Part shown: in pieces, positions 7,239 through 40,757 of the stretch
Position numbering within the stretch: the stretch's first letter is position 1
Layout: each line of letters opens with the position of its first letter
Assembly: GCA_964645885.1 (NCBI GenBank)
Contig: CAZYCO010000008.1
Coordinates: 7,171 to 54,161 of the forward strand
Length of the DNA stretch: 46,991 bases
Direction of reading: 5' to 3'
Origin: an uncultured Gammaproteobacteria bacterium
Lineage (GTDB): Bacteria > Pseudomonadota > Gammaproteobacteria > CAZYCO01
Position numbers and translations under genes: made by a program
Notes under the pieces: generated by a model
The model's input: the letters and a program-made list of their open reading frames with translations, nothing else
Told to the model about the DNA's origin: nothing
Databases searched by the model: none

Positions 7239-8795
7239 TTAACTTTGTTTCAACCGAGGCCTGCATAAGTAAAGTGTTACCACATAGGTAACTAGGCCAA
7301 CCAAAACCCATAAAAATAGATTTAAGAAGCGCCATTGCCAGCCCCAATCTAACCATACCGATAATTCTGGCAATGGTAGATATAAAACGGCGGCCATTAA
7401 ACCAGTAGAAAGGGTTAATCTGAATAAAAACCACTTCCAACCAGGTTGTAATTCGAAAATGCCTAATTTTTTTAATTTAAACCAGAGTAATCCTGCATTT
7501 AGAAAAGCAGCTAATGAGGTTGCCAATGCAAGGCCCGCATGGGCTAAATAATGAATCAAAATAATATTTAGAAAAATATTAGTAACCATAGCAATAACCG
7601 CTATACGTACAGGGGTACGAATATTTTGCGTTGAATAAAATACAGTTGCTAAAACTTTTACTGCCATAAAAGCAGGGATCCCCATAGCGAACGCAAGCAT
7701 GCTTTTCTTTGTCATTAGAACATCGTAAAGCTGAAATTGGCCTCTTTTAAAAAGAGTAACGAGTATGGGATCAGCCAATATGAAAAGTGCCACCATGGAA
7801 GGAACACTTAACATTAAAATATTTCGAAGCGCCCAGTCTGTTGTACGTGAGAAATCTTGTTTTGAATTTGCGGTATGTTTTCGCGATAAATGCGGCAAAA
7901 TAACAGTTGCTAATGCCACTCCAAATACTCCCAGAGGAAGAGAAGTAACGCGATCGGAGTAATAAAGCCAAGATACGCTTCCAATTGGTAGAAAGGAGGA
8001 AAATAACGTATCGAACATTAAATTGATTTGCGAAACAGAAACCCCAAAGAGAGCGGGGACCATTTGTTTTAAAACTCGTTTAACGCCAGGGTCATGAGGT
8101 TGGAACCTAGGGATGGGTAATAGATCGAGCGATTTTAATTTTGGAAATTGATAGACCAATTGCAAAATGCCACCAATAAAAACACCCCAAGCTAAGCTTT
8201 CAACACTAGGATGAACGATTGGTGCTAATAAGAAAGCAGTGACAATCATGGCGATGTTTAAAAGAATAGGAGTAAAAGCAGGAATGCCAAACGCGCCATA
8301 CGTATTTAAAACGGCACCACCTAACGCTGCGAGCGAAATTAAAAATAAATAAGGGAAGGTGATTCTAAGCATTTCGGCAGCCCAAACGAAGCGGTCGCTG
8401 CCAGGTTCAAATCCTGGGGCAAAAATTCTTATTAAAATTGGTGCAAAAATTATAGAAGCAATCGTAACCATAAAAACAATTACACCTAACATCCCAGTTA
8501 CCATACTGACAAAAGGTTTTACTTCTTCTTGAGTTTTATGGTGTTGGTATTCAGAAAGAATAGGGACAAATGCTTGAGAAAACGCGCCTTCAGCAAATAA
8601 TCGACGCATAAAATTTGGAATTTTAAATGCAACAATAAAGGCATCCATTCCGACGGCTGCACCAAATAAGTAAGCGGTTACCATATCTCGAGCAAAACCT
8701 AGCACACGAGAGAGCATAGTCATTGAGGCAACTACAGAAGTATGTCGCCATAGGCTTGCGTGAATACGTTGTCGGAGTGAATTCAACATTTCCAT
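7239..8795 (-). CDS. murJ: Lipid II flippase MurJ (MviN)
   Basis: SMTMLSRVLGFARDMV N-terminal signature. About 14 predicted TM segments. 518 aa. Divergent from rpsT. Confidence 0.9.
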   Translation of the reverse strand: MEMLNSLRQRIHASLWRHTSVVASMTMLSRVLGFARDMVTAYLFGAAVGMDAFIVAFKIPNFMRRLFAEGAFSQAFVPILSEYQHHKTQEEVKPFVSMVTGMLGVIVFMVTIASIIFAPILIRIFAPGFEPGSDRFVWAAEMLRITFPYLFLISLAALGGAVLNTYGAFGIPAFTPILLNIAMIVTAFLLAPIVHPSVESLAWGVFIGGILQLVYQFPKLKSLDLLPIPRFQPHDPGVKRVLKQMVPALFGVSVSQINLMFDTLFSSFLPIGSVSWLYYSDRVTSLPLGVFGVALATVILPHLSRKHTANSKQDFSRTTDWALRNILMLSVPSMVALFILADPILVTLFKRGQFQLYDVLMTKKSMLAFAMGIPAFMAVKVLATVFYSTQNIRTPVRIAVIAMVTNIFLNIILIHYLAHAGLALATSLAAFLNAGLLWFKLKKLGIFELQPGWKWFLFRLTLSTGLMAAVLYLPLPELSVWLDWGWQWRFLNLFLWVLVGLVTYVVTLYLCRPRLKQS

Positions 8796-8966
8796 GAAAA
8801 AGGGAAACCAGTTCGATAAAAAGCTTCGAGATAGTAGGGAGTTTCGCGAAAATCTACAATGATTTTTCCCATTAAGTTATTGACAACATAAACACTGCCT
8901 CGGCATGATTCGCCTCTTTTTTAATCATTGTAAATTCTTAGTTTAATTTTTGGAGAGAGAATTCCT

Positions 8967-9251
8967 GTGGCTAATACAAAACAAGCTAAAAAACGTGCAC
9001 AACTATCTGAAGAACATCGCCAACGTAATATGGCTCTTCGCTCAAAATTCAGAACTTTTCTAAAAAAAGTAGTTTCTGCTATTGAAGGTGGTAATAAAGC
9101 GCAAGCTCAAGAAGCATTTAAAGAAGCAGTTCCAGTAATTGATAGAATGGTCGGTAAAAAAATTATTCACAAAAACAAAGCAGCACGCCATAAAAGCCGT
9201 TTAAGCGCTCGTATTAAAAATATGGGTAAAGAAGCAGGCTCTGCAGCTTAA
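8967..9251 (+). CDS. rpsT: 30S ribosomal protein S20
   Basis: GTG start preceded by GGAGAGAG. MANTKQAKKRAQLSEEHRQRN is typical of S20. Confidence 0.95.
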   Translation: MANTKQAKKRAQLSEEHRQRNMALRSKFRTFLKKVVSAIEGGNKAQAQEAFKEAVPVIDRMVGKKIIHKNKAARHKSRLSARIKNMGKEAGSAA

Positions 9252-9262
9252 ATCTTGATTAT

Positions 9263-9298
9263 CTTTTGTAGGGCGCTTTTTTTGCCGTCCTACAAAAG
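9263..9298. repeat. GTAGG...CCTAC hairpin between convergent rpsT and obg (REP-like, possible bidirectional terminator)
   Basis: CTTTTGTAGGGCG-ctttttttg-CCGTCCTACAAAAG forms a 10+2 bp stem. There is no clean U-tail on either strand, so the terminator call is tentative. Confidence 0.45.
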
Positions 9299-9321
9299 AA
9301 AAAATAAGAAAATTGACTAAA

Positions 9322-10377
<1,056 letters not shown>

Positions 10378-10391
10378 TTAAAAGACAATAA

Positions 10392-10673
10392 TTATTCAGA
10401 TACTTGTGCTTCAACTTCAACAGGTTTAATGCTGACTACCGTGCGTTTTTTAACGCCATTTGTTGAAAATTGAACTAAACCAGTTACTAAAGCGAAGAGA
10501 GTATGATCTTTACCAACTCCAACGTTAGGGCCAGCCATCATTCTTGTTCCACGTTGACGTACTAAGATATTACCTGCTTGTACAAATTGGCCGCCAAAAC
10601 GTTTTACGCCCAATCGCTGCGCTGCTGAGTCGCGGCCGTTTTTAGAACTACCGCCTGCTTTTTTATGTGCCAT
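10392..10673 (-). CDS. rpmA: 50S ribosomal protein L27
   Basis: [28 protein letters not shown]. Confidence 0.95.
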
Positions 10674-10690
10674 TGTGAGAGTCCTCTAAT

Positions 10691-10999
10691 TTATACAATC
10701 TTTGTAATTTTAACTTCTGTGAAATCTTGACGATGTCCCATCTGTTTCATGTGATGTTTACGACGACGGAACTTGATAATACGAATTTTTGGATGTCGAC
10801 CGTGACGAACAACTTCGGCAGCAACTTTAGCTCCAGAAATAAGAGGGGTGCCTACTTTCACAGAATTACCATCGCTGACTAAAAGGACTTCTTCAAAATT
10901 AATCGAAGCACCTGGATCTGCAGGAAGTTTTTCTACTTGAAGAAGCTGGCCTTCAGAAACGCGGTATTGTTTACCACCGGTTTTAATTATCGCGTGCAT
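10691..10999 (-). CDS. rplU: 50S ribosomal protein L21
   Basis: [17 protein letters not shown]. The ATG at rc 10997-10999 lies 9 nt after GGAG. The track start (GTG at 11005) is only 3 nt from the RBS. Confidence 0.93.
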
Positions 11000-11089
11000 A
11001 TGCACTTACTCCACAAAAGTTATTATTGAAATTTAGAAAGGTCGCGATTATAGGAAAGTAGTTTCATATCGGCAACCTAATTTTCTACC

Positions 11090-11118
11090 ATGACATCCAA
11101 AATATGAGCACGTATAAT
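11090..11118 (+). promoter_or_regulatory. Candidate sigma70 promoter of the gcv operon
   Basis: ATGACA (11090-11095), a 17-nt spacer, then TATAAT (11113-11118). It lies 35 nt upstream of the corrected gcvT ATG. The ORF-track start at 11117 sits inside the -10. Confidence 0.45.
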
Positions 11119-11152
11119 GCCCCGCGTTTTAAACAACTTTAGAAACAACTCT

Positions 11153-12238
11153 ATGTCAAAACAAACACCACTATATTCTGAGCATGTTCGTTTAGGAGCC
11201 AAAATAGTTGATTTTGGTGGTTGGCAGATGCCACTTCATTATGGATCACAATTAGAAGAGCACGAGCGCGTCCGACGTGATGCAGGATGGTTTGATGTAT
11301 CGCATATGACTGTCGTTGATTTATTAGGTGTAGGCGGACGTTCTTTCCTTCGATACCTTCTTGCTAATGACGTAGATAAGCTACAACAAGGCCAAGCCCT
11401 TTATTCATGTATGTTGAATGATCAAGGCGGTGTAATTGATGATTTAATTGTTTATTACCGTAGTCCAGATAACTATCGTTTAGTGTTAAATGCGTCTACT
11501 CGCGATAAAGATTTAGCATGGATTCATAAACAAGCAGTTGGTTTTTCAGTTGGCGTACAAGAACGAACTGATCTTGCAATGATTGCAATTCAAGGACCAA
11601 ATGCAATTTCAAAATTAAAGTCAATTGATCAACAGTTTGAACAACTTTCAAATCTGAAAAATTTTTACACATTAGAACAAGCAGATTTATTTATTGCTCG
11701 TACAGGTTACACAGGTGAAGATGGCGTAGAAATTATTTTACCTCAAACTCAAATCGTAGAATTTGCACAAAAACTCGTAGAACACGATATTAAACCTTGT
11801 GGTTTAGGTGCACGTGATACATTGCGTTTAGAAGCAGGACTAAATTTATATGGCTCTGATATGACAGAAGACACTTCTCCACTTGAATCTAATCTTGCTT
11901 GGACAATTGCTTGGTCACCTGATGATCGAGAATTTATTGGCAGAACAGCATTGGAAGTGCAAAAACGTGCTGGTATTCGTCAAAAATTAGTTGGACTTAT
12001 CTTAGAAGACAAAGGCGTGATGCGCAGTCATCAAAAAGTAATTGTTACTGATAAAGGTGAAGGAGAAATTACCAGCGGTACATTCTCTCCAACACTTAAT
12101 TGCTCTATTGCATTAGCACGTGTTCCAGCTGCTACTACTAACACTTGTTTTGTTGATATTCGTGGAAAATTAATGCAAGCAAGAGTTGTAAAACCACGTT
12201 TTGTAAAACACGGTAAATCAATTGTTGAAAATATTTAA
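11153..12238 (+). CDS. gcvT: Glycine cleavage system aminomethyltransferase (T protein)
   Basis: MSKQTPLYSEHVRLGAKIVDFGGWQMPLHYGSQLEEH. 361 aa from the corrected start. Confidence 0.95.
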   Translation: MSKQTPLYSEHVRLGAKIVDFGGWQMPLHYGSQLEEHERVRRDAGWFDVSHMTVVDLLGVGGRSFLRYLLANDVDKLQQGQALYSCMLNDQGGVIDDLIVYYRSPDNYRLVLNASTRDKDLAWIHKQAVGFSVGVQERTDLAMIAIQGPNAISKLKSIDQQFEQLSNLKNFYTLEQADLFIARTGYTGEDGVEIILPQTQIVEFAQKLVEHDIKPCGLGARDTLRLEAGLNLYGSDMTEDTSPLESNLAWTIAWSPDDREFIGRTALEVQKRAGIRQKLVGLILEDKGVMRSHQKVIVTDKGEGEITSGTFSPTLNCSIALARVPAATTNTCFVDIRGKLMQARVVKPRFVKHGKSIVENI

Positions 12239-12259
12239 AGAGAATAGGGGAAAAATAGT

Positions 12260-12655
12260 ATGAGTAGTATGGTTCCAAAAGAATTGAAATATACCCAAAC
12301 TCATGAATGGGTTCGTGAAGAAAGTAATGGGACATTAACTGTTGGTATTACGGATCATGCGCAACAATTATTAGGTGACATGGTTTATGTTGAATTACCT
12401 GACGTTGATAAAACATTAAAAGCTACAGTTGAAGCAGGTGTTGTTGAATCTGTGAAAGCAGCATCCGATATTTATAGTCCTGTTTCGGGAAAAATTACCG
12501 AAGTGAATCAAACTGTTGTAGCTAATCCAAGTATTGTAAATAGTGATCCATATGGTGAAGGTTGGTTATTTAAAATTGAACCTGAGCAAAAACAAGATAT
12601 AAATCAATTACTGGATGCAAATGCATACAGTACTCAAATTGCTGATGAAGAATAG
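12260..12655 (+). CDS. gcvH: Glycine cleavage system H protein
   Basis: ELKYTQTHEWV plus the lipoyl-lysine motif VESVKAASD. Confidence 0.95.
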   Translation: MSSMVPKELKYTQTHEWVREESNGTLTVGITDHAQQLLGDMVYVELPDVDKTLKATVEAGVVESVKAASDIYSPVSGKITEVNQTVVANPSIVNSDPYGEGWLFKIEPEQKQDINQLLDANAYSTQIADEE

Positions 12656-12670
12656 AAGAGAAAGTTAGTT

Positions 12671-14077
12671 ATGCCATTTATTCCACATACTGAAAATGAT
12701 ATTGCAACTATGTTAGATGCTATCGGTGTCGACAGTATCGAAACACTTTTTGATGAAATTCCAGCGCATTTACGTGCTCGTGGGTTACAACACGTTCCAT
12801 CAGGTTTAACTGAAGTTGAAATGGCTCGTGTCATGCGCGAAAAAGCAGCTGCTGATAAAAATGACCTTTGTTTTATTGGTGCTGGTGCATATGAGCATCA
12901 TATCCCTTTTGCTGTATGGGATATTGCAAGTCGTGGCGAATTCATGACGGCTTATACGCCTTATCAAGCAGAAGCAAGTCAGGGCACATTACAATTGTTA
13001 TATGAATATCAAACAATGATGGCCCATTTAATGGGATTAGATGTTTCAAACGCGTCTTTGTATGACGGTGCATCTGCGGTAGCTGAATCAATTTTAATGG
13101 CTGTACGTGCTAATCGTAATAACACTTCTAAAAATGTTTTATTTTTAGGAACAATTCATCCGTATTACAAACGAGTCATTCAAAGTATTGTTTCTCATCA
13201 AGGTATTAACTTAATTGAAATTCCTTTTTCGTCTAAACAAGGTCGTGTTGAAGCAAACCAACTTGATCAATTTGCAAAAGAATCACCAGTTGCATTAATT
13301 ATTCAACAACCAAATTTCTTTGGCGTAATTGAAGAAATAGATCAACTAACAGATTGGGCCCATGCACAAAATGCTTTTGTAATTGCTGTGGTAAATCCAA
13401 CTGCAACAGCAGTATTAAAAGAACCTGGTAAATGGGGACAAAAAGGCGCAGATATTGCATGTGGTGAAGGACAACCATTAGGTGTACCACTTGCATCAGG
13501 TGGGCCTTATTTTGGTTTTATGTGCTGTAAGCAAGAGCTTGTTCGCCATATGCCTGGACGAATTATTGGTCGAACAGTTGATCGTGATGGTAAACCTGGA
13601 TTTACTTTAACTTTGCAAGCACGTGAACAACATATTCGTCGTGCAAAAGCGACTTCTAATATCTGTACCAATCAAGGATTACTCGTAACAGCAGCAACAA
13701 TTTATATGAGCTTATTAGGCTTTGAAGGATTACGCTCTGTTGCTTTGCAATCTCATCAAAATACTAAAAAACTGTTAGAAAAATGTTTATCAGTAAAAGG
13801 TGTTGAGCAAGTATTTCATACGCCATTTTTTCATGAAATTGTTTTACGTATGCCAATTTCGGCATCAATTGTCTTAGAAGAGATGGCTGCACAAGGTATT
13901 CAAGCAGGTTTTGATCTTTCAGAAGAATATCCAGCATTTTCAAATTGCTTATTAATTTGCGCAACCGAAACAAAATCAGAACAAGATCTTGAAAAATTTG
14001 TGCAAGTTTTGAAGTCAATTATGAATAAACATAATTCTGGAGCTGGTAATCATTTATCTACAAATGCTCTAGTTTAA
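12671..14077 (+). CDS. gcvPA: Glycine dehydrogenase (decarboxylating) subunit 1
   Basis: [19 protein letters not shown]. 468 aa, the N-terminal half of a split P protein. Confidence 0.93.
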
Positions 14078-14120
14078 CAATTAGTAAATACATCTTTTTA
14101 TTATTTATAAAGGTATCGTT

Positions 14121-15389
14121 ATGGTTTTATCGCATAAGTATTTTCCAATGTGGGTTCGAATTTTTTTGGGCCTCATACTCGGTGTGGTAGCAGGATTTGT
14201 AATTGGTGAACCTGTCAAACATTTAAAACCTATTGGCGATATTTTTATTACATTAATACGCATGGTTGTCATGCCTGTGATTTTCGTTTCACTTGTTTGT
14301 GGTGTGACAGCCATGAAAGATTTGAAGCAAATGGGACGAGTCGCTTTTAAAACATTAATTATTTACTCGTTCACTATGGCATTTGCAGCAGCCATGGCAA
14401 TGATTTTGTCTACAGCTTTTCACGTTGGTGATGGTCTAAATTATAGTGTAACGTCCTCCGGTACAGGTGCAGGCGCTGAAAAAATTCCAACGCTTTACGA
14501 TACATTAATGAGTATTTTTCCATCCAATCCATTTAAAGCTTTAGCAGAAGGACAAGTTTTACCAGTAATCTTGTTTGCTATATTTTTTGGTCTTGCGATT
14601 AATCTTTCAGGAAAACAAGGTGAAGCAGTTCGCAATTTCTTTGATTCAATGAATCATGTGGTATTTAGATTAATTAATATGGTTTTGTGGTTTGCACCAT
14701 TTGGTATTTTCGCATTAATGGCATATGTCACTGCAGATAATGGTTTTTCTATTTTAGAGCAGCTCGCGAAAGTTGTAGGCACTATGTATTTATCATGTTC
14801 AATTTTGATTTTGGGTGTCTATAGTCTGTTGCTTGTTGTATTTGGTATTAAACCATGGCCTTTCATTAAAAAAATGTTACCGGTGCAATTGTTTGCTTTT
14901 TCAACCACAAGTAGTAATGCAACTTTGCCACTTAATATGAAAACTGCTGAAACACAATTAGGTGTACCAAATAGTATTGCGAGTTTTGTATTACCGCTTG
15001 GCGCCACTATAAATATGAATGGTCTTGCGACATATTTAGGAATCGTCACTATTTTTGCAGCGAATGCTTACGGCATACATTTAACACTCGCACAAAAATT
15101 CACAGCAGTATTAACAACAACATTAGCTGCAATTGGTGCTGCAGGTGTGCCGGGTACAGCATTAGTTGTAATGAGTTTAGTTTTAGCTTCAGTTGGTTTA
15201 CCACTAGAAGTAATCGCAGTTATCGCTGCAGTTGATCGTATTCTCGATATGATGAGCACATTAACTAACGTATCTGGTGATACTTTAGCAGCAGTTCTTG
15301 TTGCTAAAACTGAAAAAGATTTAGATAAAAAAGTATATGAAAGCAAGATGAGTGAACATGATGATCTTGCTGAAATTCCAGAGAAATAA
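14121..15389 (+). CDS. Dicarboxylate/amino acid:cation symporter (DAACS/GltP family), predicted neutral amino acid substrate
   Basis: Family motifs are present: IRMVVMPVIFVSLVCGV, SSNATLP, NMNG (the NMDG position) and DRILDMMSTLTNVSGD (the DxxxDRxRTxxNVxGD position). About 8 TM segments plus hairpins. 422 aa. Confidence 0.85.
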   Translation: MVLSHKYFPMWVRIFLGLILGVVAGFVIGEPVKHLKPIGDIFITLIRMVVMPVIFVSLVCGVTAMKDLKQMGRVAFKTLIIYSFTMAFAAAMAMILSTAFHVGDGLNYSVTSSGTGAGAEKIPTLYDTLMSIFPSNPFKALAEGQVLPVILFAIFFGLAINLSGKQGEAVRNFFDSMNHVVFRLINMVLWFAPFGIFALMAYVTADNGFSILEQLAKVVGTMYLSCSILILGVYSLLLVVFGIKPWPFIKKMLPVQLFAFSTTSSNATLPLNMKTAETQLGVPNSIASFVLPLGATINMNGLATYLGIVTIFAANAYGIHLTLAQKFTAVLTTTLAAIGAAGVPGTALVVMSLVLASVGLPLEVIAVIAAVDRILDMMSTLTNVSGDTLAAVLVAKTEKDLDKKVYESKMSEHDDLAEIPEK

Positions 15390-15410
15390 TTAACAGCGAA
15401 ATTTTCGCTA

Positions 15411-15468
15411 ATGAACCCTCACCTGCCCATGACAAGCGTGGGCATTCTCTCCCGCGACGCGGAAGAGG
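15411..15468 (+). repeat. Family-2 intergenic palindromic repeat, copy 1 (within the gcv operon)
   Basis: ATGAACCCTCACCTGCCC..TGCCCAtgacaagcgTGGGCA..CTCTCCCGCgacGCGGAAGAGG. It shares an 18/19-nt head and double-hairpin organisation with 21134-21190. Confidence 0.65.
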
Positions 15469-15489
15469 AAAATAAGGAGTAAATTTTAT

Positions 15490-16947
15490 ATGGCTGAATT
15501 AATTTTTGAATTATCACAACCAGGGCGCGTTGCAAAACCACATGTTTTAGCAACAACGGAAAATCTAAGCGATATTCCAAAAGAATATTTACGCCAACAA
15601 AAACCATTGATGCCTGAAGTTTCAGAGCTACAAGTTGTTAGACATTACACTCGTTTGTCCCAACAAAATTTTTCAATTGATACGCATTTCTATCCGCTTG
15701 GATCATGCTCGATGAAATACAATCCACGCGCAGCACATCGATTGGCATCGCTACCAGAATTTTTAGCCCGCCATCCTTTAACACTGGAAAAAAATAGCCA
15801 AGGTTTTTTGAGTTGCATGTATGAATTACAAGAGATTTTAAAAGATGTAACTGGCATGAAAGGTGTTTCATTAACACCAATGGCAGGTGCGCAAGGTGAA
15901 TTTGCTGGTGTATCAATGATTCGCGCTTATCACGATGCTAGAGGCAATCATGCAAGACGTGAGATCTTAATTCCTGATGCAGCACATGGAACAAATCCTG
16001 CAACTGCAATGATGGCTGGTTTTTCCGTCAAAGAAATTCCAACTGATGCTGAAGGTGATATTGATTTAACTGCATTAAAAGCAGCACTTGGGCCACAAAC
16101 TGCAGGGATTATGTTAACTAATCCATCAACAATTGGTGTATTCGAACGACAAATTGAAACTATTGCAAAAATGGTACATGAAGCAGGCGGATTACTTTAT
16201 TACGATGGTGCAAATTTAAATGCGATTCTCGGAAAAGTACGTCCTGGTGATATGGGTTTTGATGTGATGCATTTAAATTTACATAAAACATTTGCGACAC
16301 CACATGGTGGTGGCGGTCCAGGATCAGGGCCAGTTGCAGTTGCTGAACGCTTAGTTCCATTTTTACCAACACCAATAGTTGGTTTGGAAAATGGTCAATA
16401 TCGTTGGCTGACCCAAAACGATTTACCACAAACAATTGGTCGTTTATCTGCGTTCATGGGCAATGCAGGTATTTTAATGCGCGCTTATATTTATGCGCGT
16501 TTACTTGGAAAAGAAGGTTTAGTGCGAGTTGGTGAATTTGCCACACTAAATGCAAATTATTTGATGAAGCAATTACAAAAAGCTGGTTATCAATTAGCGT
16601 TTCCAAAACGTAGAGCAACACACGAATTTATTGTGACGCTAAAACAAGAAGCAAAACAACTGGGTGTTACTGCAATGGATATCGCAAAACGCTTACTTGA
16701 TTATGGTTTTCATGCACCAACAACTTATTTCCCATTACTTGTTCCAGAATGTTTGTTAATCGAACCTACAGAAACAGAAGCGAAAGAAACACTTGATCAA
16801 TTTGTTGTTGCTATGACAAAAATTTTGGAAGAAGCGAAAACCAATCCTGAATTACTTAAAAATGCACCAGTCACACAACCAGTGAAACGTTTGGATGATG
16901 TTAAAGCAGCTCGTGAATTAGATTTAGTGTGGGAAAAGAAAGATTAA
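15490..16947 (+). CDS. gcvPB: Glycine dehydrogenase (decarboxylating) subunit 2
   Basis: PLP-lysine region [18 protein letters not shown]. 485 aa. RBS AAGGAG. Confidence 0.93.
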
Positions 16948-17081: not shown

Positions 17082-18650
17082 ATGATTAGCACTGAAGATT
17101 TAAAATCAGTGCAGGATGCAGAACAACCACAAGGATCAGTTTTAATTTCAAATAATCAAACTGCAAATTATTCATCAAACACTGCGGCTTTAGGTAATCT
17201 CAAATTAAAAAAAGATAATACAAAACAAGTCTTAAAACTTGAGCGCAAAGCTAGTCTCGCAAAAAATCTTTTTCCTGAAGAAAATAAAGAAAATGAAGCA
17301 CCAAATGATAATGTACAATCTACACCACAACGTTCTTCGCGCCGAATAGCAGGCTTGCCCTTAACTGAAGAAGAACAATTTTTATATAATATTAATGCTC
17401 ATGACAAAAAAACACCTATCATTGCGCCACCTATCAAATATCCACATCGTTTTGAAAAAACACCAGCACAATTGAAAGTAGTTCCTAGGCCATATCAAGA
17501 CGAAAGCAAAAAAAAATTAGCTATTCCACAAGAAAAAATAGATAAAGATTTAAAAAATTTAAAAAACTTTAAAGAAGAAAAAGTTCAAATTGAATCGCAA
17601 AAAGTAAACGGTGTACGAATTTGTAAAGATGCGAATGATGTTGTACTGGAAAAATATTTCACAGTTAAATTAACTTGCACTAAATTAACTTTTTTTGCTA
17701 GTCCTCTTCTGCCTACAGACCGTCGTAGACATTTTGGCAATGTAAGATTTGATCAATCCATAATGGACTCGAGAATAAAAAAAATAGAAGAATTAAATAA
17801 AAAATCAAAAACAGATATTAAAACATTGCAAAAAGTTTCTTTAGATAAAATTAATGAGAATGAAGATTATTTGCTATCAATTCAACCCGCACCACAAGTT
17901 GCAGTTAAAGAATTTTTTCGCGTTCCAGTGACTTGGGATGTAATAAAAAGATGGCAGAGGATCGCACAAAGCGGTCGTAAACCTTCTCAATGTGATGTAA
18001 TGGGAATTAGTGCCGGTGAATATGTACAACTTTTCGGTTTTGATGATCCATTAGATTTGCGAGGTAAAAGTAATTGGGAATGGTTACATTTGCTCGCGTT
18101 TTCATTAGGTGGCCCAGATAATAAATATCCACAGTTAGATAAGAATTGGGATGGCGATATTAAAAATTTGCAAGGTCCGCAGTCATGTAGAAATTTAGTT
18201 GCAGGCCCAGTAGGGACCAATACCTGGATGATGATAGGTGAATTCCCACCACATTATTTATTAGTTGATCACAAAGCTAAAGTTGAGAAAGTTTTTATTT
18301 CTGCGCGAGCAGAATTATTTCCAAATACACATATCGCGAAAAAAATTCTTTACACAATTGCTTGGACGCCTAAAGGTTGTACTGAAGAAAAATCAGTTAG
18401 TTTTAAATTTAATCCACTACGTTTTGATGCGCCAACTAAAGCATTAGAAAATTATTTAAGAAAAATTATTGATCGAGAAATGAAACATCAGCATACACAA
18501 AATGATGTCTCTAACACCACAACTCAAAATAAAGTTGCACTCAAACCACAATTTATCGATTTAGATGAAGTTGATGAGTTAAATAACAACAATAATAATC
18601 AAAATAACGATGATGTAACGCCATCTGTATCAATTGCAATAAAACAATAG
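17082..18650 (+). CDS. Orphan 522-aa protein: disordered Lys/Glu/Asn-rich N-terminus and a C-terminal domain with an HNH/His-Me-finger-like motif
   Basis: RBS GAGGA 8 nt upstream. The motif is NWEWLHLLAFSLGG...(insert)...NLQGPQSCRNLVAGPVGTNTWMM at about nt 18072-18233. Poly-Asn acidic tail is DEVDELNNNNNNQNNDDVTPSVSIAIKQ. No family recognised with certainty. Confidence 0.7.
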   Translation: MISTEDLKSVQDAEQPQGSVLISNNQTANYSSNTAALGNLKLKKDNTKQVLKLERKASLAKNLFPEENKENEAPNDNVQSTPQRSSRRIAGLPLTEEEQFLYNINAHDKKTPIIAPPIKYPHRFEKTPAQLKVVPRPYQDESKKKLAIPQEKIDKDLKNLKNFKEEKVQIESQKVNGVRICKDANDVVLEKYFTVKLTCTKLTFFASPLLPTDRRRHFGNVRFDQSIMDSRIKKIEELNKKSKTDIKTLQKVSLDKINENEDYLLSIQPAPQVAVKEFFRVPVTWDVIKRWQRIAQSGRKPSQCDVMGISAGEYVQLFGFDDPLDLRGKSNWEWLHLLAFSLGGPDNKYPQLDKNWDGDIKNLQGPQSCRNLVAGPVGTNTWMMIGEFPPHYLLVDHKAKVEKVFISARAELFPNTHIAKKILYTIAWTPKGCTEEKSVSFKFNPLRFDAPTKALENYLRKIIDREMKHQHTQNDVSNTTTQNKVALKPQFIDLDEVDELNNNNNNQNNDDVTPSVSIAIKQ

Positions 18651-21203: not shown

Positions 21204-21953
21204 CTATTTCAACACTGTTCTCGCACACACCCATACTGCAATAAATTCCACACCATTTTCTTTTAAAGTTTTACAAAATTCTTTAATGGTACTTCCAGTT
21301 GTCACTACATCATCAATCACTAAAACTTTTTTTGCAGAAAATTTTTTATCAACAACAAATGCTTTTTTAATATTTGAAGAACGTTGCTCAAATGTTAATT
21401 GAGATTGCGCATTGGTATTTTTAATTCGCTTGCATTGATGTAATAGCAATGGAATGTTTAATTGTTTACTGATAGGTCTTGCAATTTCCACTGCTTGATT
21501 AAAACCTCTTTTTTTTATGCGTGAGCGATGCAGTGGTACAGGAATAATAAAATCAAAGTGATGTTTCATATCTTCTGCAAAATAATTTGTCATTAATAAG
21601 CCAAATATGCGTGCATAAATTAAATTTTCATGAAATTTTGTTTGAGTAATCCAATCATCGATAGGATGTTCATATAGAAATAATGATTTGATTTCATCAA
21701 AAGGAGTTTGTTCGTTTAAACATGCACCACAAATTAAATTTTTAACAGAAGATGGTGGAAGAGGTTCGGCGCAGCGATAACAGCTAAAACGTAAAAACGG
21801 CAAGGTTTTCTCACATGAAACACAAAGATTAATTTTTCTATTACTTAACTCTTTGCAAATAACGCAAGTTGAGGGAAAGACGAAATTGAACACAGATAAA
21901 TACTTTGTATTGTCAGTGCTGACAGTTTTATAAATTTGTTTGATTAATTGCAT
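21204..21953 (-). CDS. comF: ComF family phosphoribosyltransferase-like protein
   Basis: N-terminal Cys clusters (CVICKE..CVSC, CYRC..CGAC) and PRTase motif VLVIDDVVTTGSTI. Confidence 0.85.
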   Translation of the reverse strand: MQLIKQIYKTVSTDNTKYLSVFNFVFPSTCVICKELSNRKINLCVSCEKTLPFLRFSCYRCAEPLPPSSVKNLICGACLNEQTPFDEIKSLFLYEHPIDDWITQTKFHENLIYARIFGLLMTNYFAEDMKHHFDFIIPVPLHRSRIKKRGFNQAVEIARPISKQLNIPLLLHQCKRIKNTNAQSQLTFEQRSSNIKKAFVVDKKFSAKKVLVIDDVVTTGSTIKEFCKTLKENGVEFIAVWVCARTVLK

Positions 21954-23230
21954 CTCTTGTAATTACCGCTAATTCTTCAATTGTTTCAACACTTGTATTT
22001 AAAGGTGGTAACCAATAAATCGTGTTTCCTAATGGTCGAAGAAGCGCGCCTAATTTCATGGCTTGTTGAAATACTAAAAATCCACCACGCGATTTTTCAG
22101 TAATAAGATCACATGCGACATGCATACCAATATGCCGAATGTTTTTAATTTTTCCGGTTTGATCTGAAACCCACTGCATCTTCGCCAACAGTATAGAAGA
22201 ATTTTTTTCAACATCTTGTAAAATCTGTTCTTCTCGAACAATTGCTAATGTCTCTAATGCAACAGCAGCACATAATGGGTTGCCACTGTGTGTATGCGAA
22301 TGCAAAAAATTTTTTTGCTTTTCATAATCATCATAAAAAAGCTCAAATATAGTTTGAGAAGTTAGTGTTGCACTCATTGGCAAAAAACCAGCAGTTAAGC
22401 CTTTTCCTAAACATAAAAAATCCGGTGTGATGTCAGCATGTTCACACGCTAACATTTTTCCAGTACGACCAAATCCAGTCATAATTTCATCTGCAATTAA
22501 ATGAATGTCGTGTTGTTTAGTCCAAGTGCGTAATCGTTTTAAAAAATCTTGGCTATATACTTGCATGCCACCTGCGCCTTGCAAAATAGGTTCAATTACA
22601 ATTGCAGTTAATTTTTCTTTATAAGGTTCAAGTTGTTTTTCAACTTTTTGCCAATGTAATTCTGCGTTGTGCCATAGTGCATCTTGTTTGGATGAAACAT
22701 AGGGAACAGGTTGTATAAATACAGGCTGAATCAAAATTGCTTCGTATGATTTTCGATAAAGTCCTAAATCGCTTATACCTAAACTTAATCCAGTTTCACC
22801 GTGATAACTATTTTCTAATGATGCAAATAACTGTTTTTGATGTTGTTCTTGAATTCTTCTGCTGTGCAGACTTAATTTCATTGCCATTTCGACTGCACAA
22901 GAACCATCACTGGCATACATAATTTTATTTAAAGGCGGCATTAAAGTCGCAAGTTGTTCGGATAATTGAATAATTGTTTCGTTAGTCGTATTTGCAAATA
23001 TGTCCCAATCTTTCCACCTGCCTAATGAGTGCTGCTTTTAAGCGCGGATGATCATGTCCTAATGATTTGCACCACCAACTTGAACCAGCATCAATAATCT
23101 TTTTACCGTCTAAAGCTTCTAAATAACTACCATACGCACGATTTATAACGACGGGTGGAAACGTTTCACAATCTTTCATCTGAATACAAGGGTGCCAGTT
23201 GTGTTTTAAATCGCGTGTGAGTAAGTCCAT
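21928..23230 (-). pseudogene. bioA: Adenosylmethionine-8-amino-7-oxononanoate aminotransferase, interrupted by a frameshift near 22996-23001
   Basis: The N-terminal 82-aa ORF (..GSSWWCKSLGHDHPRLKAALIRQVERLGHI) and the 337-aa ORF are consecutive parts of BioA. The +1 frame reads ..DIFANTTNETIIQLSEQLATLMPPLNKIMYASDGS, continuing the alignment (E. coli ..[37 protein letters not shown]). The shift lies at ggacatATTTgcaaat on the gene strand. Confidence 0.8.
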
Positions 23231-27663: not shown

Positions 27664-27921
27664 TTAATCTCTTACTTCTTTCATAAAATCATTAATCATT
27701 TTTTGTAAACGAATAACATCGGTTTCAATATTTTCAATTACTTGTAACAACAAATTAATATTATCTTGTGAGATGGCGTGTTGTGGTTGTTTGCCATTCA
27801 GTAAATTTTCATAGTTTTGCAAAATTAATGGCAAATAATTTTTGATACCACTTGCACCAAGTTGAATTGATGCAAGTGGTGTACGGATATCATGAACAAA
27901 TTTTTCAATCATCTCATTCAT
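27664..27921 (-). CDS. Stand-alone histidine-kinase DHp (HisKA) domain mini-protein, 85 aa, no ATPase domain
   Basis: H-box EKFVHDIRTPLASIQLGA followed by a second amphipathic helix (NLLLQVIENIETDVIRLQKMINDFMKEV). The ATG lies 2 nt after the ispA stop. The stop is 1 nt from the bioD stop, so there is no room for a CA domain. Confidence 0.6.
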   Translation of the reverse strand: MNEMIEKFVHDIRTPLASIQLGASGIKNYLPLILQNYENLLNGKQPQHAISQDNINLLLQVIENIETDVIRLQKMINDFMKEVRD

Positions 27922-29031: not shown

Positions 29032-29155
29032 TTCAGAACCTCCGTACCTAAAATGGTGGTAGGACGTTATCTGACTGCTTTGGAGCGGTCAATTGATACC
29101 TAGTCCTCAAATTACTTGCAACAGAATGCCTTTATCTTTACATTATTCAAATTAA

Positions 29156-29182
29156 TTTAAATTACATTGGATGTAATTTAAA
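29156..29182 (+). promoter_or_regulatory. Perfect 12-bp inverted repeat with TGG spacer in the leader or promoter of the 142-aa ORF (DNA operator and/or CsrA-type GGA hairpin)
   Basis: TTTAAATTACAT-TGG-ATGTAATTTAAA. As RNA, the core UACAUUGGAUGU is close to the CsrA high-affinity consensus RUACARGGAUGU. It lies 48-74 nt upstream of the ATG at 29230. Confidence 0.5.
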
Positions 29183-29229
29183 ACATTTTAGTAAAAATAC
29201 CCTAATTTTCTATTGCAGGGAGCAAAAAA

Positions 29230-29658
29230 ATGGCTGCTTTAAATACCTCAGATCTTCATATTTTTAAAATTGTTGAAATTAAAAACCCTACCAAGGATAA
29301 ATATTGGGTGGTCATAAAAATTTTAGGTTTGGACGAATTAATAGAAGAAAAACCAATTAATTTAATTGAAGATGATGTTGTCATCCAAGGGTTTTCGCCG
29401 CTAGATGTTAGAACACTTACTCTTTTAGCTTGCGCAGAATGGCATTTCCCCAATCAAACTATAGTTGCTTATGATTTTAGTGAGCCGGATAACGAAACTG
29501 TTTTTCATATTAAAGAACGACACAAATCATATGTTGTCAAAAAGAAATTAAGTGAACTTCATGCCGATCGGCAAACACTTTCGGAATTTGATCCAATTGA
29601 TGCTTACCGAATCGGATATTTTCATGGACTGAATCGTATTACTTTTAATAAAAAATAA
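29230..29658 (+). CDS. Orphan 142-aa protein, no recognised family
   Basis: ORF with a strong RBS (AGGGAG 7 nt upstream). Its stop codon directly abuts the stop of the convergent repressor gene (0-nt gap). Confidence 0.6.
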   Translation: MAALNTSDLHIFKIVEIKNPTKDKYWVVIKILGLDELIEEKPINLIEDDVVIQGFSPLDVRTLTLLACAEWHFPNQTIVAYDFSEPDNETVFHIKERHKSYVVKKKLSELHADRQTLSEFDPIDAYRIGYFHGLNRITFNKK

Positions 29659-30306
29659 TTATTCGATTAAATTAATTCGAGTCTGTACAACTACTCCAAT
29701 GATTCGATCTGTTTCACCTAACGGTACAGGCTCTAATTTATTCAAATATGGATTCAAAGACTGTAAATAGCAGTGTGCGCCATCAAGTAGAATTTGTTTG
29801 AATAATGCTTCTGCTTCATTTTGCAAATGTACAACAACAAAACTTTTATCGCGGATCACTTGTTCAGGATCAACAACTAGTAATGTCCCTTCTGGGAACA
29901 ATGTTTCCATTGCTGAGCCTTTAACACGTAGTGCAAATGCACTTTGACTTACTTTAGCATCAGAAAAAATATTTTGAGTTGCTGCAAAATATGGATTTTG
30001 TTGTTTGAGTTGCGGCCATTCAATTGCTTGTTCCCATGTGAGCAATGGTACAGAAGTTAATTGATGTGTAACGAAACGAGTATGTAATTCTTCAACCGGT
30101 GTTTCGTCTAATAGATCAGCAATAGAAATTGCTAACGCATTTGCAAGTGCAATTAGTGATTTGCGATGCGGCCTACTTGTTGCACCAGATAAAATATGAT
30201 GAACCGTTGGTTGCGGTAATGAAGCAGCACGAGCTAAATCTATTTCAGATAAGTTGCCACGGCACTTCATAAAATAACGCAGTCTGTCGCTGAGTTTATT
30301 TGTCAT
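29659..30306 (-). CDS. Lambda-CI-like HTH repressor with a degenerate (Ser-to-Ala) S24 peptidase domain
   Basis: N-terminal XRE-type HTH (LSEIDLARAASLPQPTVHHILSG). The C-terminal region aligns with the CI/LexA autocleavage domain (SAFALRVKGSAMETLFPEGTLLVVDPEQ...LFKQILLDGAHCYLQSLNP). I preferred the start at MTNKLSDRL (30306, after AGGGGAG); the track start is 30348. Confidence 0.8.
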   Translation of the reverse strand: MTNKLSDRLRYFMKCRGNLSEIDLARAASLPQPTVHHILSGATSRPHRKSLIALANALAISIADLLDETPVEELHTRFVTHQLTSVPLLTWEQAIEWPQLKQQNPYFAATQNIFSDAKVSQSAFALRVKGSAMETLFPEGTLLVVDPEQVIRDKSFVVVHLQNEAEALFKQILLDGAHCYLQSLNPYLNKLEPVPLGETDRIIGVVVQTRINLIE

Positions 30307-30508
30307 TTTTTTCTCATCTCCCCTTATTACTCCAACGATTGAAAACAAATTTTTTTCAATTTAAATTTGACAATTTAAATAATTAAGAATAAAAAAGAAT
30401 AAATGTAATTTTTAAAACGAGAGACTACCACATTTTTTTTTAAGAAGAACAGTGCTTAACACCACATGTTGAAACAAGGTTCGTTTAAATCACAAGGGAG
30501 ATGTATCA

Positions 30509-30688
30509 ATGTTAGTTCTTACACGTAAAGTTAATGAAAAAATCATAATTGGTAACAACCAAGAAATTGTTGCCAAAGTTTTGCGAATTAGAGGAGGGAA
30601 AGTTCGTATTGGTATTGAAGCACCGAAACAAGTACGTGTTTATCGAGAAGAAGTTTTAAAACAAACGCACGGTGGTGAAGCTGAATAA
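30509..30688 (+). CDS. csrA: CsrA/RsmA-family RNA-binding protein, divergent paralogue (59 aa; below the ORF-track length cutoff)
   Basis: My translation is [59 protein letters not shown]. It carries the CsrA signatures MLxLTR(K/R) and VRIGIxAPxxVxVxREE. RBS AAGGGAG is 8 nt upstream. Confidence 0.85.
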
Positions 30689-30711
30689 TTAATTTAATTT
30701 TTCATAATTAT

Positions 30712-30748
30712 TTTGTAGGGTGACGAAAAATAATTTAGTCACCCACAA
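30712..30748. repeat. GTAGGG-headed hairpin between csrA and the cupin gene (REP-like, possible terminator)
   Basis: TTGTAGGGTGAC-gaaaaataattta-GTCACCCACAA. No U-tail follows. Confidence 0.45.
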
Positions 30749-30763
30749 CAATAGGAGAAGTTA

Positions 30764-31258
30764 ATGTTACCAGCGGTAAAAACTTATATTGAAAAATATA
30801 ATTTACAACGTCATCCAGAAGGTGGTTATTTTTCTGAAACTTATCGCTCAGCAGATCATGTTGCACCGAAACACGAGCGTTATCAAAACGAAGAGCGAAC
30901 TGCAGGAACATCAATTTACTACTTACTAGAAGGAAATGACTTTTCAGCATTTCATAAAATCAAATCAGACGAAATTTGGCATTTTTATGATGGTTGTGAT
31001 GTTGAAATTTATGTGATTGATCCAACTGGTAAATTAAACAGTTATTTATTAGGTTGTGGTCTAAATGCTCATTTCCAAGTTGTTATCCCAGCAGGGTATT
31101 GGTTTGCTGCAAAACCAATTGATAGTTTATCGTTTAGTTTTGTTGGTTGTACTGTTCATCCTGGATTTGAATTCAGAGATTTTATATTGGCCGAACAACA
31201 GGTTTTTTTGAGCCAATATCCTCAATATAAAGAACTAATTCTAAAATTTACCCGTTAA
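30764..31258 (+). CDS. Cupin superfamily protein, DUF985 type
   Basis: LQRHPEGGYFSETYRS near the N-terminus and the FHKIKSDEIWHFYDG beta-barrel motifs are typical of DUF985. RBS AGGAG. Confidence 0.8.
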   Translation: MLPAVKTYIEKYNLQRHPEGGYFSETYRSADHVAPKHERYQNEERTAGTSIYYLLEGNDFSAFHKIKSDEIWHFYDGCDVEIYVIDPTGKLNSYLLGCGLNAHFQVVIPAGYWFAAKPIDSLSFSFVGCTVHPGFEFRDFILAEQQVFLSQYPQYKELILKFTR

Positions 31259-37347: not shown

Positions 37348-38163
37348 ATGAGTAATATCGTTATAAACTGGATGGCCGGTTTAATTGCTTTTGGGGTCGC
37401 GTTCTTATTTGCAGTCGTTTTTTATTTGTTTTGTACAAAGAAAAAATTTCTGAATGTCTTAGGAACACTTGTTGTATTTGGGCTTGTTTATTATGCAGCA
37501 GATATATGGACAAAACCTTATTTCGAAGCATGGCGCTATGTACAAGCAGTAAAAAAACTATCAATCGTACAAGCAATCGCAAATTATCAACCAGAACAAT
37601 TTCAAGCATTTAAAAAAGAAGTAACGCAGGTTTTCGTTAATAAAGAAAATCCAGATAAGATCAGTACTTATTTACGACAACTTGGTTTGAATGCGTTTGT
37701 TGCTAGTTTGTCACATGCATCAAATGATTCAATTTATCGCTTCTTGCAATCAACAATTGCATTTTATCAAAAATTAAATGATTCAAATCCTGAACTTGTG
37801 ATTATTATGGAAAATCCAAGTTTAATTCCTGCATCACAAAGTCCTAAAGTGTTGCAAGATCTGATGACTACAACTGAAGGTCAGGATTATGTTAAAGCAA
37901 AAGAAAACCTGATTGAGTCTCAAGTCAAAGATATTAAAAACACAATGACAGATGAACAAATTAAAAGCCAAAGCTCTGCCATTATAAAAGAACTTGGCGA
38001 TAAATATGGCGCTGAAAATGTAACTTTAGTATTTACCAAACCAGGTGATTCAAAGTTAGATAAAAAAGTTGGCGCTCAAATTATCATCGGTTTTTATCAA
38101 AAGATTAAAGATCTTGGTAAAGATAAAGCAGGTGATATTTTTAGATTTACTGCTAAGAAATAA
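37348..38163 (+). CDS. Orphan membrane-anchored protein (two N-terminal TM helices plus a Lys/Gln-rich soluble domain), last gene of the suf transcription unit
   Basis: Starts 16 nt after sufT with RBS AAGGGAAGGG. TM segments are IVINWMAGLIAFGVAFLFAVVFYLF and VLGTLVVFGLVYYAADIW. No family recognised. Followed by a REP hairpin. Confidence 0.6.
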   Translation: MSNIVINWMAGLIAFGVAFLFAVVFYLFCTKKKFLNVLGTLVVFGLVYYAADIWTKPYFEAWRYVQAVKKLSIVQAIANYQPEQFQAFKKEVTQVFVNKENPDKISTYLRQLGLNAFVASLSHASNDSIYRFLQSTIAFYQKLNDSNPELVIIMENPSLIPASQSPKVLQDLMTTTEGQDYVKAKENLIESQVKDIKNTMTDEQIKSQSSAIIKELGDKYGAENVTLVFTKPGDSKLDKKVGAQIIIGFYQKIKDLGKDKAGDIFRFTAKK

Positions 38164-40574: not shown

Positions 40575-40757
40575 ATGATTTTTAAAAAACTCAAAACTGA
40601 CTTTGTTAGTCCAGATGAAAAATTTCTTTATAGTCTGGATAAAAAAATCCCTTTATCTAAAAACCAGATAAAAGAAATAGAAAAAGCGAAACGGATTGCT
40701 AAGCTTCGCGATAATCCTAATCCAGAGCAAAAAGACGAAATCTGGGAAAAGTTTTAA
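40575..40757 (+). CDS. Small hypothetical protein (60 aa)
   Basis: ORF with RBS GAGGT 8 nt upstream. Lys/Glu-rich with no recognised family. Its stop shares the TTAA tetranucleotide with the stop of the convergent DUF47 gene. Confidence 0.4.
   Translation: MIFKKLKTDFVSPDEKFLYSLDKKIPLSKNQIKEIEKAKRIAKLRDNPNPEQKDEIWEKF

Follow-up and report, generated by a model that had tools for sequence, protein, structure and literature searches.

A repressor/CsrA cassette in an uncultured gammaproteobacterium resembles the regulatory modules of Legionella conjugative elements

CsrA paralogues carried on the integrative conjugative elements (ICEs) of Legionella are already known. A Legionella genome typically holds 4-7 csrA-like genes, and those other than csrA and csrR all lie in ICEs (PMC4471563). 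The lvrRABC genes, of which lvrR encodes an S24-like protein and lvrC a CsrA, form a Legionella-specific regulatory module upstream of P-, F- and GI-type type IV secretion systems (T4SSs) (PMC3864950), and their place is 5' of the lvh, Trb/Tra and GI-type systems that ICEs and plasmids carry (Wee et al. 2013, PMC3864950). A CsrA paralogue of the Legionella core genome, CsrR (lpg1593), has also been described (Abbott et al. 2015, PMC4471563), and canonical CsrA binds csrR mRNA at a GGA motif near its start (PMC4471563). Here we examine a csrA-family gene in 47 kb of DNA from an uncultured gammaproteobacterium (contig CAZYCO010000008.1 of assembly GCA_964645885.1; we call this whole stretch of 46,991 nucleotides the window). 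The gene is transcribed divergently from a phage-type repressor gene, and the original prediction had read the two as an orphan ICE-style regulatory module of the lvrR...lvrC kind.

The prediction was right about csrA and the repressor; it had missed a third conserved gene and the loss of the residues for self-cleavage in the repressor. The cassette comprises the following genes, with amino acids abbreviated as aa and the helix-turn-helix domain as HTH:

29230..29658, plus strand: partner protein of an undescribed family ('hyp142 family'), 142 aa, convergent with the repressor gene, the two stop codons abutting.
29659..30306, minus strand: CI/LexA-like (lvrR-like) repressor, 215 aa, with an N-terminal HTH and an S24 domain that is predicted to have no catalytic activity.
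30509..30688, plus strand: csrA-family gene of the lvrC-like, T4SS-associated type, 59 aa with an ATG start, encoding a predicted RNA-binding regulator.

We think it probable, with some reserve, that this three-gene cassette shares ancestry with lvrR/lvrC-type modules and has become fixed beside xseB-ispA without transfer genes, where selection maintains it; the direction of transfer would have been from ICE to chromosome.

The nearest repressor outside the window's own clade (51% identity) comes from locus L005, in the metagenome-assembled genome GCA_054681755.1. There the repressor stands opposite a divergent operon, ORF186 - CsrA - TrbC/VirB2 - VirB3, and the partner gene is convergent and csrA divergent, as in the window; the L005 partner is 35% identical to that of the window (E=6e-26) and the L005 CsrA 59% (E=2e-19). 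In Legionella fairfieldensis (L012), a P-type T4SS is headed by two csrA genes, and facing these are a distant S24 repressor (31% identity) and its partner. The order there is TrbI..VirB4-VirB3-VirB2-VirB11-CsrA-CsrA on one side and S24 repressor - partner on the other, with the csrA pair leading VirB11-VirB2-VirB3-VirB4-VirB8-VirB9-TrbH-TrbI and a ParA gene nearby. Because the trio arrangement recurs in front of virB2/virB3 in L005, and because a repressor/partner pair faces csrA genes at the L. fairfieldensis T4SS, the ICE-style (lvrR...lvrC-like) reading is supported, and a two-residue CsrA insertion shared with L005 (see below) adds to that support. Since the distant L. fairfieldensis member shows it as well, the T4SS association spans the diversity of the repressor family.

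L005 also carries repeated short elements of the form 'tatagtcttcacactcgaaaa(a/c)ggga...gtcaccctgagccgc...' that flank its module (at about 1-290 and 2650-2930), one copy lying between the repressor and partner genes and two after virB3 at the contig end. They look like MITE/REP-type elements and may have broken the assembly.

Compared with lvrRABC, the window is alike in having an HTH and S24 repressor divergent from a CsrA-family gene, and in that its repressor family also heads the L. fairfieldensis P-type T4SS (31% identity) and the L005 VirB2/VirB3 module (51%). It differs in having no T4SS, integrase, tRNA or att site, in the position of the cassette beside xseB-ispA and its vertical inheritance, in the addition of a third conserved gene (the 142-aa family), and in a repressor without the nucleophile Ser. 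The window csrA resembles CsrT and the other ICE-borne L. pneumophila paralogues (Abbott et al. 2015/2016, cited in PMC5655016 and PMC4471563) as a divergent CsrA tied by ancestry to conjugative-element regulation that retains its RNA-binding residues, but unlike them it does not lie on an ICE. CsrR is described as chromosomally fixed, conserved and outside mobile elements, and the window csrA is likewise, with a conserved GGA-containing Shine-Dalgarno (SD) region; pairing with an S24 repressor, in contrast, is not reported for csrR (PMC4471563).

The 59-aa reading frame at 30509-30688 proved real, with an ATG start, a product sequence exactly as originally quoted and a match to Pfam CsrA (PF02599) at E=1.5e-21 (76.5 bits for a gathering cutoff of 27, residues 1-52 aligned to the 53-position model). 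E. coli CsrA (PDB 1Y00) aligns with it from end to end (phmmer, E=5e-11). The RNA-binding residues are kept, both in the MLxLTR strand (MLVLTRK, for E. coli MLILTRR) and at the key Arg of the xHREE motif (R46, E. coli R44; VYREEV, for VHREEI). Divergence from the canonical form, the other claim made for this protein, is also borne out: it scores below both NCBIfam canonical equivalog cutoffs (NF002469, 68.2 vs 73; TIGR00202, 66.6 vs 70.1) and, compared with E. coli CsrA, has two extra residues inserted in a beta-strand following the IG(D/N) turn. An insertion of this length with similar sequence occurs only in the window-clade orthologues and in the T4SS-linked CsrA of L005 (GENREIVAEIL); it is absent from the 120 best database CsrA matches and from 41 parsed metagenome CsrAs.

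Close relatives of the window CsrA are rare. Among 5.8 billion proteins we found three (93%, 88% and 69% identity), the next matches being generic and at most 64% identical; no Legionella protein is among the 120 best database matches. In a metagenome scan with an alignment of the CsrA sub-clade, the 80 loci recovered were generic CsrAs with identities no higher than 67%, and the repressor, the partner and the insertion were absent from all of them, and an exact-sequence look-up found no other contig. Within the window, tblastn found no second csrA. The usual position of csrA in Gammaproteobacteria is downstream of alaS; no alaS was found in the window, where the neighbours of csrA are xseB/ispA and cupin/suf. 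Searched against plasmids with tblastn, CsrA and the repressor gave distant matches only, and the partner none; a Legionella plasmid S24 gene found in this way (26% identity) lies opposite an F-type tra operon that has no csrA. Scans of genome contigs with the repressor alignment and with the partner alignment returned no relative.

The three close CsrA relatives belong to L001, L002 and L003. Comparing synteny at xseB/suf, as the original prediction had advised, we found the partner-repressor-csrA trio beside xseB-ispA in each of the three; L001 has the bio and suf flanks of the window, whereas in L003 other genes (lolB among them) make up the right flank and the identity of IspA is down to 42%. 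L001 also has a gene of the CBU_0585/lpg0581 family, with a window orthologue at 40575-40757 (82% identical); together with the Legionella homes of the accessory families, this suggests a Legionellales-like affiliation of the host.

Synonymous sites among the window, L001 and L002 are saturated (dS 1.0-2.1). Among these three the ratio of nonsynonymous to synonymous change (dN/dS) is 0.05-0.06 for csrA (with an overall range of 0.05-0.13 for this gene), 0.02-0.04 for the repressor gene and 0.06-0.10 for the partner gene; xseB, for reference, has 0.04-0.07 and ispA 0.08-0.09. Between the window and L001/L002 the repressor protein is 95-96% identical, IspA 82-83% and XseB 71-76%. The reading frames of the trio are intact in four lineages, and the GC content of the module (0.32-0.375) equals that of its flanks. 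By these comparisons of sequence, the cassette appears to be working and selectively maintained, not a decaying relic. The original prediction had left the choice between a relic of an ICE and a chromosomally fixed switch; purifying selection (dN/dS 0.02-0.13), synteny across lineages, ameliorated GC and a conserved control region lead us to reject the relic and to favour the fixed switch.

The description of the module as an orphan was correct. Its flanks are xseB-ispA on the left and the suf operon on the right, as the Pfam-annotated open reading frames (ORFs) confirm, and no T4SS, integrase, tRNA or att-like repeats were found in the whole window: the 42 window ORFs of at least 120 aa contain no T4SS or integrase domains, no tRNA was found, and no att-like direct repeats flank the module. 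Searching the window with tblastn revealed no T4SS remnants and none of the ParA or Vut genes of related elements; no phage genes or PHROG matches were found there besides the repressor and CsrA themselves. Apart from the module, every window ORF of at least 120 aa is either a housekeeping gene or has no Pfam match.

The repressor matches Pfam HTH_3 (1.1e-5) and Peptidase_S24 (5.1e-17) and the PHROG family phrog_4, 'transcriptional repressor' (9.7e-27); eight relatives of it are detectable in all. Its start lies 202 nucleotides (nt) from that of csrA, ATG to ATG; taking the upstream TTG at 30348 as the start shortens the distance to about 160 nt, in agreement with the divergent spacing of 160-200 nt first claimed. 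It is 25% identical to lambda CI and shares with CI/LexA the two-domain build of HTH and S24, the general-base Lys (K170, CI K192) and a spacing of 38 residues between cleavage site and active site. It differs in having Ala for the nucleophile Ser and Ala-Ile for the scissile Ala-Gly, and in that no prophage surrounds it. In the HMMER alignment, window G130-S131-A132-M133 corresponds to lambda CI G147-N148-S149-M150; in the MAFFT alignment, the CI bond A111/G112 (HVQA/GMF) corresponds to A94/I95 (WEQA/IEW). Both changes are common to the window, L001 and L002; Ser is kept in L003 and L005. Because the nucleophile Ser and the Ala-Gly site are both lost, the window repressor probably cannot self-cleave. 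Across 15 family members, Ala-Gly, Ser and Lys are all kept in one (L096, the sole carrier of Ala-Gly), most have Arg for Lys, and in the copy on the L. pneumophila plasmid Met replaces Ser. In this family the S24 domain seems to serve as a scaffold and not for proteolysis.

The partner protein has no Pfam, NCBIfam or PHROG match. Exhaustive HMMER searching of 1.8e9 proteins found 162 cluster representatives of its family at E<=1e-3, typically 160-175 aa long, and the window protein is without an N-terminal helix of about 25 residues that most members have. In each of the 11 independent loci examined, a member of the family stands beside, or within about 2 kb of, a repressor of the same S24 family (these loci are the window clade; L005, L007 and L008, the last with two pairs; L011, a Legionella pneumophila plasmid, and L012; and L014, L095 and L096). 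An AlphaFold (AF2) model built from 52 homologues (pLDDT 88) consists of two tandem three-strand-plus-helix units, for which Foldseek found no match at E<=1e-3 in PDB or BFVD. The best Foldseek match, a tandem chromodomain protein (E=0.011, TM 0.24-0.31), was not significant.

In several loci the S24 repressor and partner are linked to Vut_1, a YhhQ-type queuosine-precursor transporter, both on Legionella plasmids or elements and at chromosomal sites with neither T4SS nor csrA:

L008-L010, 8001-9982: Vut_1-linked repressor/partner.
L095, 7363-9206: Vut_1-linked repressor/partner.
L096, 5271-8540: Vut_1-linked repressor/partner.
L011, 5995-7910: Vut_1-linked repressor/partner.
L012, 7334-9744: Vut_1-linked repressor/partner.

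In L014 (a 1.78-Mb contig, 7292-16540), the pair lies directly upstream of an amidase gene and a giant NRPS/PKS gene (>3100 aa), with transposases and an integrase fragment on its other side; here the repressor/partner cassette may control a secondary-metabolite island.

The noncoding parts of the module hold the following features:

30307..30508, no strand: divergent control region between repressor and csrA, of which about 115 nt (roughly 30343-30455) are nearly invariant in the window, L001 and L002.
30359..30380, plus strand: candidate csrA operator, ATTTAAAT-TTGACA-ATTTAAAT, in which palindromic 8-mer boxes exactly bracket a consensus -35 (30367-30372).
29145..29190, plus strand: second candidate operator, ATTTAAAT - TACATTGGATGTA - ATTTAAAA, an inverted repeat upstream of the 142-aa gene.
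30494..30505, plus strand: csrA SD region, AAGGGAGATGTA, with the sole GGA of the leader.
30709..30753, plus strand: imperfect hairpin with a GGGTGAC...GTCACCC core, an inverted repeat between csrA and the Cupin_5 gene.

Such conservation between the repressor and csrA starts is not expected of neutral DNA, given that synonymous sites of the flanking genes are saturated over the same comparison. The region contains no plausible small ORF, and Rfam matched no family in the module or in the whole window. A riboswitch or small RNA in the conserved block was rejected on that result and because the fold of the csrA leader (GGGAGAUG) is no better than that of shuffled sequences (z=0.48). At the csrA promoter, the -35 is followed after a 17-nt spacer by a candidate -10, TAAAAA, at 30390-30395. 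A perfect 9-nt inverted repeat was detected at the candidate operator, whose double box is identical in L001 and L002; the pattern ATTTAAAT-N4-8-ATTTAAAT occurs once in the window, where 0.02 occurrences are expected. The 10-mer AATTTAAATT has two copies only in the 47 kb, at 30358 in the csrA promoter and at 29154, which is 75 nt ahead of the partner gene. At the latter site a box pair similar to that of the csrA operator flanks the TACATTGGATGTA palindrome; L001 conserves this segment, and L002 part of it. From these correspondences we infer that the boxes are putative operators at which the repressor would act on both csrA and the partner gene.

Nearer to csrA, CAAGGGAGATG is invariant in the window, L001, L002 and L003, the remaining L003 intergenic region being unalignable, and the octamer GGGAGATG precedes both the csrA start and, on the opposite strand, the repressor start. 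The original prediction had likened the SD region to a CsrA binding site. In its favour, CACAAGGGAGAUGU does hold a GGA that is invariant in four lineages; the argument is nevertheless weak, because any good SD contains GGA, this is the only one in the leader, and there is no significant fold. CsrA auto- or cross-regulation through this GGA is possible. Downstream of csrA, the hairpin was not called a terminator, since it has no T-run, and it may be a weak terminator or insulator.

Several points weigh against shared ancestry with lvrR/lvrC-type modules and against the details attached to it. Homologues of all three genes occur together in one T4SS-linked module only, that of L005, and as its contig ends right after virB3, the T4SS is visible there as virB2/virB3 alone. 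Equivalents of lvrA and lvrB are absent: the 202-nt gap holds no credible ORF, and the 186-aa ORF that stands in the corresponding place in L005, used as a query, had no tblastn match in the window or in plasmids. The repressor/partner pair is also found without T4SS or csrA in chromosomal contexts, often with Vut_1 (L008-10, L014, L095, L096), and is therefore not specific to ICEs. The CsrA alignment, at about 50 columns, is too short for a robust tree. At the proposed csrA promoter, the -10 is without its final T, and a simple promoter scan found fewer sites than in shuffled sequences (4 vs 9.7).

The window gene could instead be the sole housekeeping CsrA of its lineage, divergent in sequence and adjoined by a dedicated repressor, the likeness to T4SS modules being secondary. 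We judge this rather unlikely. In its favour, the window has no other csrA, purifying selection on the gene is very strong with synteny in four lineages, its GC is ameliorated, its RNA-binding residues are intact, and it scores just below the NCBIfam equivalog cutoffs. It would also be compatible with an ICE-derived copy having replaced the canonical csrA. The same scores, however, do fall below both curated cutoffs for canonical CsrA, and the 2-residue insertion is common to the T4SS-linked CsrA. The gene is not at the alaS-linked position, with no alaS in the window, and it is all three cassette genes, not csrA alone, that have T4SS-module homologues. Legionella genomes, moreover, typically carry several csrA-like genes (4-7; PMC4471563).

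Transfer could also have run from chromosome to ICE, an ancestral chromosomal trio having been captured by conjugative elements. The repressor/partner pair is indeed common in chromosomal contexts without a T4SS, the window-type trio is old enough to be kept between lineages whose IspA proteins are only 42% identical, and only one T4SS-linked trio was found. We nevertheless regard this direction as quite unlikely, as an S24 repressor and CsrA with several T4SS types is the rule in Legionella (PMC3864950, PMC4471563), the distant L. fairfieldensis repressor (31% identity) is T4SS-associated too, and the chromosomal form with csrA occurs in a single small clade. Least credible, and in our view extremely improbable, is a non-functional relic, the decaying remnant of an excised ICE or prophage. 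Such decay might be read into the lack of transfer or integration genes nearby, the repressor's loss of its catalytic Ser and cleavage site, and the missing N-terminal helix (about 25 residues) of the window partner. Against it stand frames intact in four lineages with dN/dS of 0.02-0.13 at saturated dS, a repressor that has changed less than IspA or XseB, the conservation of the control region, and the absence of phage genes or PHROG matches besides the repressor and CsrA. A prophage remnant in particular was rejected, because phage genes are lacking and it is to T4SS-linked modules that the nearest relatives belong.

If the cassette is a fixed regulatory head of the lvrR/lvrC type, it might work as follows. 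A repressor dimer would bind the ATTTAAAT boxes around the csrA -35 and the similar pair upstream of the partner gene, setting transcription of csrA, of the partner gene and probably of the repressor gene itself. With its Ser nucleophile and Ala-Gly bond lost, the repressor would escape inactivation by RecA-stimulated self-cleavage, so relief of repression would have to come through another input. The always-adjacent partner protein would be the obvious candidate, and its role as the induction input is speculation. The CsrA-family protein would bind GGA-containing leaders of target mRNAs and alter their translation or stability; its targets may belong to the host or to an element at another place in the genome. 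In the fullest form of this scheme, which we hold to be unlikely, the locus is a domesticated conjugative-element switch in which a non-cleavable repressor under partner control gates a CsrA that governs host genes and is possibly the lineage's only CsrA.

On the left the window runs through fpg, ychF, pth, rplY, murJ, obg, gcvT/H/P, a dicarboxylate symporter, a pseudouridine synthase, bamD, a ferritin-like protein, comF, bioABFHCD, ispA and xseB to the module; on the right follow Cupin_5, an Rrf2 regulator, sufBCDS-U-T, epmA, FTR1, a PhoU-like protein, queA, hsp33 and secDF. The Cupin_5 (DUF985) gene (30764-31258, plus strand), between csrA and Rrf2/suf, is absent from that place in the syntenic L001, and its presence is a lineage-specific indel adjoining the module. 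Immediately downstream of ispA, an 85-aa stand-alone protein (27664-27921, minus strand) matches HisKA only (the phospho-acceptor DHp domain; E=7.9e-8), sensor and ATPase domains being absent. L001 (66% identity) and L002 have it too, and such a mini-protein could interfere with a histidine kinase.

Farther from the module, bioA (21928-23230, minus strand) is split over two reading frames: residues 1-92 of L001 bioA correspond to window frame -2 (23230-22952) and residues 79-435 to frame -3 (23001-21931). The split reflects either a frameshift, making bioA a pseudogene, or a mistake of the assembly. Glycine dehydrogenase is encoded in two halves, gcvP1 and gcvP2 (12671-16947, plus strand), with the sodium:dicarboxylate symporter gene (14121-15389) between them. 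Three ORFs among the housekeeping genes have no significant Pfam match (2625-4610, minus strand, 661 aa; 17082-18650, plus strand, 522 aa; 37348-38163, plus strand, 271 aa). They may be lineage-specific, and perhaps encode effectors if the host is an intracellular relative of the Legionellales.

The locus carries a Legionella-specific theme over to an uncultured relative of low GC and does not overturn current understanding. It makes three points testable: that RNA-level regulators of mobile elements can be recruited into host regulation, that this repressor family has largely given up LexA-type self-cleavage, and that an unannotated partner family, its constant companion, is a candidate for the missing induction signal. 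Legionella is reportedly without LexA and an SOS response (Charpentier et al. 2011). If the proposed working is true, the repressor/partner pair would be a general RecA-independent induction mechanism for the mobile elements of Legionellales, and such a mechanism would fit organisms reported to be without LexA/SOS. The locus can be regarded as a natural experiment, in which the regulatory head of a conjugative element, its machinery gone, keeps in several diverged lineages a repressor under stronger constraint than the neighbouring housekeeping genes.

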